NCBI GenBank assembly: GCA_963835065.1
Contig: CAWIEK010000068.1
Span: forward strand, 32,001 to 96,000
Length of the DNA stretch: 64,000 nt
Direction of reading: 5' to 3'
Source: an uncultured Chthonomonadaceae bacterium
GTDB lineage: Bacteria > Armatimonadota > Chthonomonadetes > Chthonomonadales > Chthonomonadaceae
Part shown: positions 6,772 through 22,322 of the stretch, in pieces
Position numbering within the stretch: the first letter of the stretch is position 1
How the letters are laid out: every line of letters begins with the position of its first letter
The notes under the pieces: generated by a model
Seen by the model: only the letters and a program-made list of their open reading frames with translations
Told to the model about the DNA's origin: nothing
Database searches by the model: none
Program-made: the position numbers and the translations under genes

Positions 6772-6952
6772 ATGACAATTACACTGGACTTACCCCCGGA
6801 GTTGGAAGGGCAAATACAGCAGGTGGCGCGGGCACAGGGCAAGGATGTGGCTGCCTTCCTGCTTGACAGCATCCGTCAGCGCTTGCGCCATGACGTACTG
6901 CCCGAAGCGGATGCGCGTCTGCTTCAGATAATCAATGCCCCGATTGCTCCAG
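6772..6952 (+). pseudogene. Truncated antitoxin-like small protein
   Basis: MTITLDLPPELEGQIQQVARAQGKDVAAFL resembles RHH-type antitoxin N-termini. After IINAPIAP the frame runs into low-complexity sequence and the repeated element. The breakpoint is approximate. Confidence 0.5.
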
Positions 6953-7009
6953 CGAGGGATAGATTTCCAGCCCCGAAGCAAGCGCCCCCTACGTTCCCCA
7001 AGACTCCAA

Positions 7010-7336
7010 CAGCAACCATCCCACTAAAACAATCCCGCAAAAAAGACAGAAAAAAAGAGCAAAACAATGCGAAAAAAGCGAACCCTTTGCTCAACTCAGC
7101 CGTCTAAATAGCAGTACAAACGTCTACTACACAAACACAAAGGCTGAACGTTGGTAGTTCCTATCAACTATCAACTACACTAACAGGAAGGGAGGTGCAT
7201 GAGAATGTCCCTACACCCCTCCCGCCCGCCTTGACGCTGCTGCGAGGTCACGACGCCTCTCTTCTACAATCTGACACAACGAGACATCGGGCTGGAAGCG
7301 CTGCATTGCCAAGATTTCGACGATGCCTCTACATAT
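7010..7336 (+). ncRNA. Copy A of a dispersed structured RNA/micro-ORF element
   Basis: Colinear homology to the reverse complement of 21894-22242. GCGAACC-N17-GTCTAA promoter (7078-7107), hairpins, SD GGGAGGTG and a near-identical 3' ~100 nt. Confidence 0.7.
7205..7234 (+). CDS. Micro-ORF MSLHPSRPP*
   Basis: GGAGG-N9-ATG. Frame is conserved with copy B through a 3-nt indel and two synonymous changes. Confidence 0.55.
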   Translation: MSLHPSRPP

Positions 7337-7510
7337 CCTTTTTTCTGACTGCTCTTTTTTCATCTGCCGCCTGTCCAATGCACTTTCAAGACTCCCGTTG
7401 GCAAAGGCCGGAATTCCCGCTGGTTCGTGAAGTTATAGATTTATGGACTTTTTTATTCTCGCAAAGATGGGAAGACCGCTAACCTCTGTAGAAACGGAGT
7501 AGAACGAATT

Positions 7511-7869: not shown

Positions 7870-9552
<1,683 letters not shown>

Positions 9553-10059
9553 CCGCCGCCTCCCCGATTTCCCCGCCCGTCCGCTTGGCAGACACGATAA
9601 TTTCCGACGAAAGAAACGCAGTTGCCAACGTTCTTCGACCCGGTTACTTCTCGCGCTGCGCGCGGCTTCTTTAATAGCGTGGGAACTGTCCCGACAGCGT
9701 GGAGGCAACAGTCACGAACGGACTGCGCCGGTGTTCACGGCGTGGGAACAGGGCTGATTATAGCAAATCGGGAGGAGAATCGCAAGGTGATTCAGGCAGA
9801 TTCTTACCTTATTTTCGCTTATTTCCAAAGGTACTTTTGTCTACGCAAAATGACGCCTTTGCGCTTGCGCTAAGAAGTGTCTACCTGCTTTGGAACACTA
9901 AATGTAGCGTTTTCGCCACTTAATATCAACAGGTTTAGATGAGCGTCAGCAGGTTACGCCAATCGCGCATAGCCGCGCAGAACCTCCAAAATATGCGTTT
10001 AGATACTGTTTCGCGCAATCTAGCAAAAAAATCGTAAATCATATCCAAAATGGCTTGAC

Positions 10060-21893: not shown

Positions 21894-22242
21894 ATATGTA
21901 GAGTCATCGTCGAAATCTTGGCAATACAGCGCTTCCAGCCCGATGTCTCGTTGTGTCAAATTGTAGGAGTGAGGCGTCGTGACCTCGCAAAGCGTCAGGG
22001 CGCACGGGAGGGGTGAAACATAGGCCTGCACCTCCCTTCTGGGTTAGGGTTCTAGGGTTTTAGGTTGTTAGTTGTTAGGTTGTTAGTTGATAGGAACTGC
22101 GAACGTTCAGCCTTTGTGTCTGGATAGTAGACACTTGTGCTATTTAGACAGGAGGAATGGGGAAAAGGTTCGCTGTTTTCGGATTGTTTGGCTATTTTTT
22201 TCTGCTTCTTTTTTGGTGTGATTTTTTGCGGGAGGGTTGCTG
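21894..22242 (-). ncRNA. Copy B of the dispersed structured RNA/micro-ORF element
   Basis: GCGAACC-N17-GTCTAA at 22173-22144, with the same hairpins and SD as copy A and a longer heptamer array (22042-22093). Confidence 0.7.
21995..22021 (-). CDS. Micro-ORF MFHPSRAP*
   Basis: GGAGG-N9-ATG. Homologous to 7205-7234. Confidence 0.55.
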   Translation of the reverse strand: MFHPSRAP

Positions 22243-22322
22243 GGGGATGATGGGTACGACAATCGTGAGCAATTATGTAAAGTTTTTAAGATGCGTTAGC
22301 CCTGTTCCGGTTCGCGGCCTGC

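Follow-up and report, generated by a model that had tools for sequence, protein, structure and literature searches.

A repeated promoter, micro-ORF and RNA cassette, spread in part between transposon ends and with expression signals under selection, in one genus of uncultured Chthonomonadaceae

Bacterial repeats as abundant as the one described here are usually taken for passive MITEs or short palindromes. The 64,000-nt stretch of an uncultured Chthonomonadaceae genome analysed here (the window) holds two copies of a 330-bp unit, and about 160 copies across that genome keep the promoter, the ribosome site, the Pro-stop and the RNA fold while their transposon ends decay. The unit raises two questions: can a transcript exist in order to stall a ribosome, instead of using the stall to control a neighbour, and do such cassettes influence the sites at which a genome acquires new DNA? 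We studied the genome containing the window (G000; 8.0 Mb in 71 contigs, 92% complete) together with its two congeners, G001 (97% complete) and G002 (80% complete).

Copy A lies on the forward strand of the window. Its 5′ shell, with an A-rich tract upstream of the –35 box (6951..7079), begins where a small upstream ORF (6772 onwards) stops resembling its full-length paralogue (83% identity across 60 aa, then a divergent continuation), which suggests that the insertion of copy A cut this gene. The apparently cut ORF (6772-6951) is antitoxin-like, and its intact paralogue at G000:C37:205528 stands directly upstream of another copy. The sigmaE/ECF-like promoter GAACC-N17-GTCTAA (7080..7107; GAACC at 7080, GTCTAA at 7102), with a predicted transcription start near 7113-7114, is followed by a second –10-like box, GTCTAC(TA) (7122..7129), by a variable leader made of a hairpin (7141-7162) and heptamers that is optional in the family (7130..7187), by the Shine-Dalgarno sequence AAGGGAGGTG (7188-7197), and by the micro-ORF MSLHPSRPP-TGA (7205-7234), which has a second in-frame ATG at 7199. 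The conserved block (7244-7335) comprises hairpin P1, GAGG(T)-CACGACG-CCTC (7244..7259), and then an A/C-rich linker, stems P2/P3 (7281-7297 pairing with 7315-7329), the invariant loop AGCGCTGYATTGCCA (7297-7311) and a TACATA end (together 7260..7335), with a T-rich tail after it. An ISAzo13-type right TIR follows on the same strand (7427..7450, PWM score 23); no left partner was found within 20 kb, and the ISAs1 PWM detects no end at this copy. About 0.5 kb downstream lies dnaA (7870-9708), whose ORF has a low-complexity heptamer-repeat insert. Copy B, on the reverse strand and adjoined by gpsA, has an ISAs1-type left TIR upstream (22286..22304, PWM score 16.7), its right end being below the PWM threshold and no TSD being present. 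Its promoter (22144..22171; GAACC at 22171, GTCTAA at 22149) has the same N17 spacing and is followed by the second GTCTAC box (22132-22127), the SD (22038-22029), the micro-ORF MFHPSRAP-TGA (22021-21995), and the stretch from P1 through linker and P2/P3 to the TACATA end (21986-21895), with the invariant loop at 21933-21919. Both copies are slightly atypical, as their stop-to-P1 spacers are 9 and 8 nt, compared with 7 nt in 157/162 copies.

All motifs named in a sequence-only reading of the window are present at the positions it gave, with a similarity between the copies far beyond chance, although its description of a two-copy unit was a large undercount. The cassette family numbers 162 copies in G000, as counted by blastn with the 110-nt core and again, with the same 162, by nhmmer with an HMM built from the three genomes; these make up about 0.7% of the sequence and are dispersed genome-wide, with only 3 inside genes as called by a crude gene finder. 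Covariance-model searches returned 47 matches (one weak) in G002 and 13 in G001. The same model found the cassette in 3 of 68 genomes of the order, all of one genus, and in none of the remaining 65; in a phylum sample it was positive in 1/141 genomes, G000 itself, with none in the 140 others, both searches being run under strict filters that scored only the top candidates, so that distant relatives could escape. In five chosen relatives no match was better than E 0.4. In GTDB representatives the loop pattern occurs at no fewer than 38 loci (at least 38), and among the matches listed 33 come from two Chthonomonadaceae genomes and the other 5 are chance matches without the remaining cassette parts. 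Pattern and blastn scans of metagenomes gave 3 chance matches only, and there were no matches in viral contigs or in plasmids and phages. A scan of sequencing runs listed no RNA run as a carrier, and DNA runs with small shares only, which counts neither for nor against expression. A search of Rfam 15 at the gathering threshold yielded nothing in the window, and the two matches obtained by E-value around copy A (E 0.67 and 1.3) are at chance level. The range is narrow: one uncultured genus, three genomes. As far as we searched the family is undescribed, as no description was found in the freely available literature covered.

Across the family the promoter reads GAA(C/A)C-N16-18-GTCTA, with a second GTCTAC 10-16 nt further on. 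The full pattern is present in 133/162 G000 copies, and a looser one in 151/162 G000, 28/47 G002 and 7/13 G001 copies. We take it to resemble sigmaE/ECF promoters, as had been proposed from the two copies, and the conserved boxes with a free spacer agree with that proposal: in ISAs1-ended copies the 5-6-nt boxes hardly change, against a 19% difference in the intervening 17-nt spacer. From the shape of this promoter we infer that the cassette may be induced by stress. Some G002 copies and five G001 copies instead carry an alternative promoter-like motif, CTTCTAAA-N-AATATA/ACATATA, with the same ORF and core behind it, and the presence of a second promoter class before an unchanged ORF and core counts in favour of an RNA gene. 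A NrdR box in the G001 class-II promoter was considered and dropped, its other matches not lying beside nrd genes. Sixteen host upstream regions score >14 bits for the cassette promoter motif; three matches (G000:C44:415027, C49:35923 and C41:170514) precede apparent HrcA, proteasome subunit and glycogen phosphorylase genes and could possibly constitute a small host regulon. The upstream regions of recA, lexA and nrd, sought via protein motifs, were not retrieved.

The leader between promoter and SD is variable (0-90 nt). A UUCG hairpin had been put forward as part of the unit, yet ACACAAAGG...UUCG is present in only 43/157 parsed G000 copies, 1/45 in G002 and 0/13 in G001, and it is not a family feature. 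The heptamer array described with it is indeed present in the leader, but many copies are without that variable leader. Heptamer arrays (TATCAAC, TTCATCC, TAGTCAG, CTCTTAT and others) fill many intergenic gaps, often as inverted pairs (e.g. window 7163-7182 and L122:2720-2840), and other repeats, of a CCTGCCGGGGATTTTCAATCCCCGG type and a CCCTTCTCCC...GGGAGAAGGG type, cluster with the cassette. One G001 subfamily (L025, L027, L029, L031 and L033) has its own promoter motif and a conserved GC-rich leader hairpin, CCCTCGCACA...TGTGCGGGGG, and its loci use GTG/CTG/TTG starts and 15-codon ORFs.

The micro-ORF has 8-16 codons of variable sequence and ends in R/L/H-(S/P/A/Q)-P-stop (examples are MFHPSRSP, MPVYTRSP, MLCLLPLPP and VPTRTPRDGLYSRPP). 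When the first ATG after GGAG is taken in whichever frame it falls, it is in frame with the stop, at 24, 27, 30 or 33 nt, in 153/158 G000 copies, so that the frame survives 3-nt indels. An SD-preceded in-frame start is always present in 51 copies from the relatives (38/47 in G002 and 13/13 in G001), in a search that sought in-frame starts only; one of these copies is interrupted by a stop, and in two the last residue is Ser or Thr. Synonymous codons are used for Arg and Pro, and the stops alternate between TGA, TAA and TAG across the three genomes, which reads as a coding signature limited to the last three codons. Among predicted host genes, R-x-P-stop ends occur in only 35/6088. The translated micro-ORF that had been postulated is thus supported at the level of sequence, with frame, SD and Pro-stop kept. 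A micropeptide product or type I toxin does not fare as well, since the peptides are unconstrained in length and sequence apart from the C-terminal R-x-P-stop. Nor does SD sequestration appear to be a designed feature: the SD:ORF duplex has a median of –14.1 kcal/mol compared with –13.8 kcal/mol when the ORF letters are shuffled (n = 157), and it is weaker in the relatives than in G000. A longer protein made by frameshifting or read-through was rejected, as the stop-to-loop distance is not kept modulo 3 and no frame continues past the stop. In E. coli, Pro-stop, and PP-stop above all, slows termination and invites tmRNA tagging (PMC7246954, PMC3082878); RSPP-type motifs are reported to impede elongation (PMC12992588), and tnaC and pheL end in Pro-UGA (PMC3082878). 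By extrapolation from these other bacteria, a ribosome might stall at the S-P-stop of an 8-residue peptide.

Behind the stop come P1, an A/C-rich linker of free length, P2/P3, the loop, TACATA and a T-run, in that order. The 15-nt loop is exact in 162/162 G000 copies and the sharp conserved end TACATA is present in 159/162, with TTT ≤14 nt from the end in 198/222 copies. In an alignment of 63 copies the 19 proposed pairs are formed in 88% of cells, and double changes in these pairs number 26 compared with 10 in shuffles, while sliding the halves against each other approximately halves the pairing; the 19-pair structure was drawn by eye from these same sequences, and the shuffles ignore kinship. 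P1 is paired in 99% of cells, and in 5 sequences one of its pairs has changed both partners; double changes affect four pairs of P2 (one of which is unpaired in 46/63), and P3 shows one-sided variation in a G-U pattern with one pair mostly unformed. Compensatory and G-U-type changes of this kind fit an RNA made from the cassette strand, although most of the compensatory changes come from the one G001 subfamily and are not independent. RNAalifold retrieves just P1 plus two pairs in the loop, and the folding of individual copies does not beat that of shuffled sequences (z of –0.04, 1.11, 1.60 and 1.37; best –1.50). The conserved RNA that had been proposed is borne out by the conservation of the 3′ core, P1 and loop across copies; its fold is modest, and the sequence of the loop is the strongest constraint on it. 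A search for a loop partner or antisense target found none, the five one-mismatch matches outside the copies being at chance level.

The reading from the window had inferred that the unit moves, which is supported, but had missed the transposon ends, as well as the selection on the Pro-stop, the concerted evolution and the polarity of the flanks. Members of one subfamily, ∼465 bp long, are bounded by 19-bp inverted repeats, beyond which lie 10-bp duplications. By PWM, ISAs1-type ends occur on 37 G000 copies (18 with both ends, 11 with the right only and 8 with the left only, several of the single-end matches being marginal), and 125/162 copies have no ISAs1-type end; 9/18 two-ended copies keep a 10-bp TSD that is identical at 9-10/10 positions. 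The corresponding counts are 5 both, 8 right and 4 left of 38 copies in G002, and 0/13 both in G001, whose 13 copies have no convincing transposon ends. An autonomous ISAs1 in G002 has the same TIR as the 19-bp TIRs of the 18 copies (0-1 mismatch to the consensus), and none was found in G000 or G001. The G002 loci L040-L046 hold autonomous and broken ISAs1 copies, one of which adjoins a tyrosine recombinase gene. One ISAs1-type G002 copy occupies a site that is empty in G000. ISAzo13-type TIRs stand at 35/162 copies (5 both, 26 right only, 4 left only), with TWA targets, compared with 0.3-0.7% of 600 control gaps, and G000 has two autonomous ISAzo13 elements. As four copies are in both lists, 94/162 have neither end type; a generic TIR/TSD scan raised only the ISAs1 set above the null. 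Part of the family was amplified as cargo between ISAs1 ends with 10-bp TSDs and between ISAzo13 ends. A lone gene of 219 aa at G000:C1:163958-164882 has a short ISAzo13-type MITE on either side, an arrangement reminiscent of a small composite transposon, and at G000:C30:36860 and 37952 a ∼1.1-kb tandem duplication includes a carbonic-anhydrase-like gene along with a divergent copy that starts with ATT and stops with TAA.

If the family were an ordinary neutral MITE family, its inner conservation would stem from recent bursts and conversion. The TIRs, the TSDs, the matching autonomous ISAs1 and ISAzo13 elements and the ISAs1-type G002 copy at a site empty in G000 all agree with this reading. 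However, among the 14 G000 copies with both ISAs1 ends that served as the test set, the TIRs differ from the consensus by 10-12%, the shell by 13% and the promoter spacer by 19%, whereas the boxes differ by only 0-1.4%, SD plus RSP-stop by 0.6%, P1 by 2% and the 3′ core by 3.6%. Signals and core also have fewer private mutations (6/1582) than TIRs, shell and promoter spacer (111/2758; p = 7e-16), which indicates that the cassette is under selection. Selection acts on the promoter boxes, the SD, the reading frame, the Pro-stop and the core, so the expression signals are kept after insertion, through selection either on the copies or on the pool of conversion donors, and the cassette is, as far as its sequence tells, selected for being transcribed and translated. 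The faster decay of TIRs than of cargo largely refutes the neutral reading; the 94 copies with neither end type, the codon-level and compensatory variation, and the copies common to two species (see below) speak against it as well, and we regard it as highly improbable.

Some copies are common to two species. The 3′ flank places 36 G002 copies on G000, and at 10 of these places G000 has a copy of its own in matching orientation, compared with 2/50 control gaps (p = 0.003), and a few G001 copies also have neighbours in common. At the 9 loci common to G000 and G002 the 3′ flank is mostly orthologous and the core follows its own genome; because the 3′ flank is the main criterion by which the loci were matched, a few of them may be independent insertions. 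G000 cores at the 9 loci have identities of 0.79-0.89 to their orthologue, 0.85 to non-orthologous G002 cores and 0.93 to their own paralogues, the G000 variant AGA is found in 9/9 there compared with 1/9, and the nearest core belongs to the same genome for 98/100. Promoter and peptide type can differ at common loci. These patterns show that the cores have been homogenised within each species by concerted evolution.

As the sequence-only reading had noted from its two copies, there is no fixed downstream gene, and the neighbours are unrelated. The next gene lies on the opposite strand in 93/151 cases and on the same strand in 58/151, where it is unrelated and 46-1623 nt away; in tandem gaps the cassette is antisense 63 times and sense 23 times. 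No common neighbouring transposase or partner gene emerged among the flank clusters. The surroundings are nevertheless polar. Over 3 kb the GC content of 5′ flanks is 0.557 compared with 0.583 in 3′ flanks, lower on the 5′ side in 107/146 (p = 4e-12), the deficit extends to about –5 kb, and control tandem gaps are symmetric. Genes on the 5′ side are shorter and less often common to the sister species, and by eye they often appear to encode restriction-modification, toxin-antitoxin, nuclease or integrase functions, while core genes are frequent on the 3′ side. Consistent with this, G002 flanks map to G000 in 14/47 cases on the 5′ side and 34/47 on the 3′ side (random windows, 269/500). In TSD-bearing copies the GC asymmetry is weak (7/12, p = 0.18). 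With regard to replication strand, GC skew is uninformative in G000 and G001, and assuming an origin at dnaA, 8/13 G001 copies would lie on the leading strand. A composite transposon was rejected, as no distant left ends enclosing cargo were found.

Our best guess, held tentatively and short of even confidence, is that the cassette encodes a trans-acting, ribosome-bound stress RNA that is kept at the Pro-stop and displays its loop. It would be an RNA gene whose 5′ half engages a ribosome and whose 3′ half is conserved and structured; transposons would have multiplied it, and selection would retain it. Under stress an ECF sigma factor would produce an RNA of 215-250 nt, on which a ribosome would load at the SD, read 8-16 codons and dwell at R-x-Pro-stop. 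With a stop codon in the A site, a hairpin that starts 7 nt further on lies about at the leading edge of the ribosome, and the dwelling ribosome would set P1 there. A held ribosome can block 5′-to-3′ decay by RNase J, which is encoded here, and might in this way shield the ∼100-nt 3′ domain. The working product would be the ribosome-bound or trimmed RNA, whose invariant 15-nt loop would bind a partner in trans; the peptide would be a by-product, and copy number would supply the dose. Dose alone makes selection on each of 162 near-redundant copies hard to explain, and the stress-RNA model does not explain the accessory DNA on the 5′ side. A wider reading, possible but in our view less likely than not, would treat the cassette as the bacterial equivalent of a domesticated SINE and as a new RNA-gene class: transcribed under a stress sigma factor, its RNA would capture a ribosome by means of an expendable micro-ORF, keep it at the R-x-Pro-stop and expose the invariant loop, and as many as 162 separately selected, mutually converting copies would mark the polar edges where foreign, defence-type DNA is taken up.

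In a rival model each copy acts in cis where core genes adjoin acquired DNA, as a polar boundary and a hub for recombination, similar to phage PeSL cassettes: recombination between cores would swap 5′ flanks and import accessory genes, and the transcript would insulate or tune the junction. The low GC of the 5′ flanks down to about –5 kb with symmetric controls, the poor mapping of G002 5′ flanks to G000, the more frequent loss of left ISAzo13 ends (26 right-only and 4 left-only copies), and homogenised cores next to differing promoters and ORF types at common loci are all in line with it, and a local role explains per-copy selection. However, SD-ORF halves never occur as orphans (0 of 160 matches) and promoter pieces do so only 3 times in 159, which rules out the core as a split attachment site (an integrase attachment site was rejected on the same lack of displaced half-sites), no distant left ends surround cargo, and none of 10 close pairs is a divergent pair <15 kb. 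The polarity could equally be a survival filter that purges copies whose promoter fires into foreign genes, its weakness in TSD-bearing copies also argues against a hub, and neither the Pro-stop nor the invariant loop would be needed, so we consider this model somewhat unlikely. Selfish drive, whereby transcription and ribosome loading improve a copy as donor for conversion or transposition without benefit to the host, seems to us less probable again. Concerted evolution at the nine common loci, the same-genome nearest cores, a copy number ranging from 13 to 162 and the use of two transposase families would be expected of it, yet no dedicated enzyme was found (one IS110, only in G002; a search for Y2 transposases of the IS91/ISCR kind gave 0/3 genomes, and 0/14 controls as well), the RT matches inspected in the three genomes are a retron with its own ncRNA and a cas1-linked RT, the promoter lies upstream of the RNA and is nevertheless common to copies, which argues against retroposition, and G001 retains its 13 copies without convincing transposon ends. 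The cas1-linked RT of G000 (G000:C49:680160-683777, L119) is split in the assembly and lies near a ribosomal protein operon, with a copy ∼4 kb away.

A leader-peptide attenuator or riboswitch of the TnaC/pheL kind, or a type I toxin-antitoxin unit, is very unlikely even though SD, short ORF, Pro-stop, hairpins and T-run resemble leaders: co-oriented next genes make up just 58/151 and are unrelated and at scattered distances, the T-run is 6-10 nt from the stem, and the 8-16-aa peptides are variable, Pro-rich and mostly not hydrophobic, with no specific SD occlusion. Least credible is that the cassette serves as a trans-acting or retrotransposed template of the type XIII retron. The type XIII RT is encoded in 3/3 genomes of the genus, the retron a2 arm and the loop have the 8-mer CATTGCCA in common in G000 and G002, and msDNA-like repeats have been reported in Nannocystis (PMC6868368). 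Retron features were compared with published descriptions (PMC7736814, PMC6868368). The retron operon, though, has its own msr-msd upstream of the ARM gene, four other genomes with the RT gave no cassette in covariance-model searches, and the cassette lacks both a conserved G after GCCA and a long msd hairpin. The operon itself (ARM - SWIM/BRCT - RT) occurs in 7/68 genomes of the order; upstream of ARM lies a clear msr-msd (L160 in G000:C50; L161-L163), whose msd hairpin differs wholly between genomes; just upstream of the retron, G000 has a second msd-like cassette resembling the G001 msd, and G002 has a remnant there. A Ro60/Y RNA system was rejected, with 0 TROVE matches in G000 and weak partial ones in G001 and G002.

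Finally, we compared the cassette with the systems closest to it. It has in common with ISAs1 and ISAzo13 MITEs that 18 copies lie between ISAs1 TIRs, 9 of them with TSDs, and that 35 adjoin ISAzo13 TIRs; Neisseria Correia elements are likewise MITEs that bear promoters. In contrast to MITEs, one cargo occupies two shells that are unrelated to each other and is also present as 94 copies that have neither shell, it is a whole promoter-SD-ORF-RNA unit, and it is the cargo and not the TIRs that selection keeps, the ends being 10-12% different and not better kept than the interior. The resemblance to TnaC/PheL and the RAPP/RSPP arrest motifs lies in a short ORF, a C-terminal Arg-x-Pro plus stop and hairpins close behind (PMC3082878, PMC7246954, PMC12992588), whereas the cassette has no regulated downstream gene and no conserved upstream sensing residues, places the stop codon where RxPP motifs have the second Pro, and is dispersed in 13-162 copies. 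The PeSL cassettes of T4-type phages are repeated units of promoter, AT-rich tract, stem-loop and SD that are tied to variable regions and recombine between copies, and PeSL drives the next gene whereas the SD of our cassette serves an internal micro-ORF (PMC2839356); moreover the cassette promoter points away from the variable DNA, the structured part comes after the ORF, and the setting is a bacterial chromosome. Sibling and dual-function sRNAs are also encoded by several paralogous genes, each with its own promoter, and have in common a single-stranded motif that does not vary. Those under alternative sigma factors (Qrr, csRNA, LhrC, CcsR, SgrS) number about 2-10 copies, we know of none with transposon shells or a Pro-stop micro-ORF, and the loop of the cassette differs in that no antisense target was found for it. 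Mobility by way of MITE shells is known biology, and the cargo failed every family test that was run: the cassette moves like a MITE, is built like an attenuator that has no target, has multiplied like sibling sRNAs and sits like PeSL, and it fails a defining test of each.
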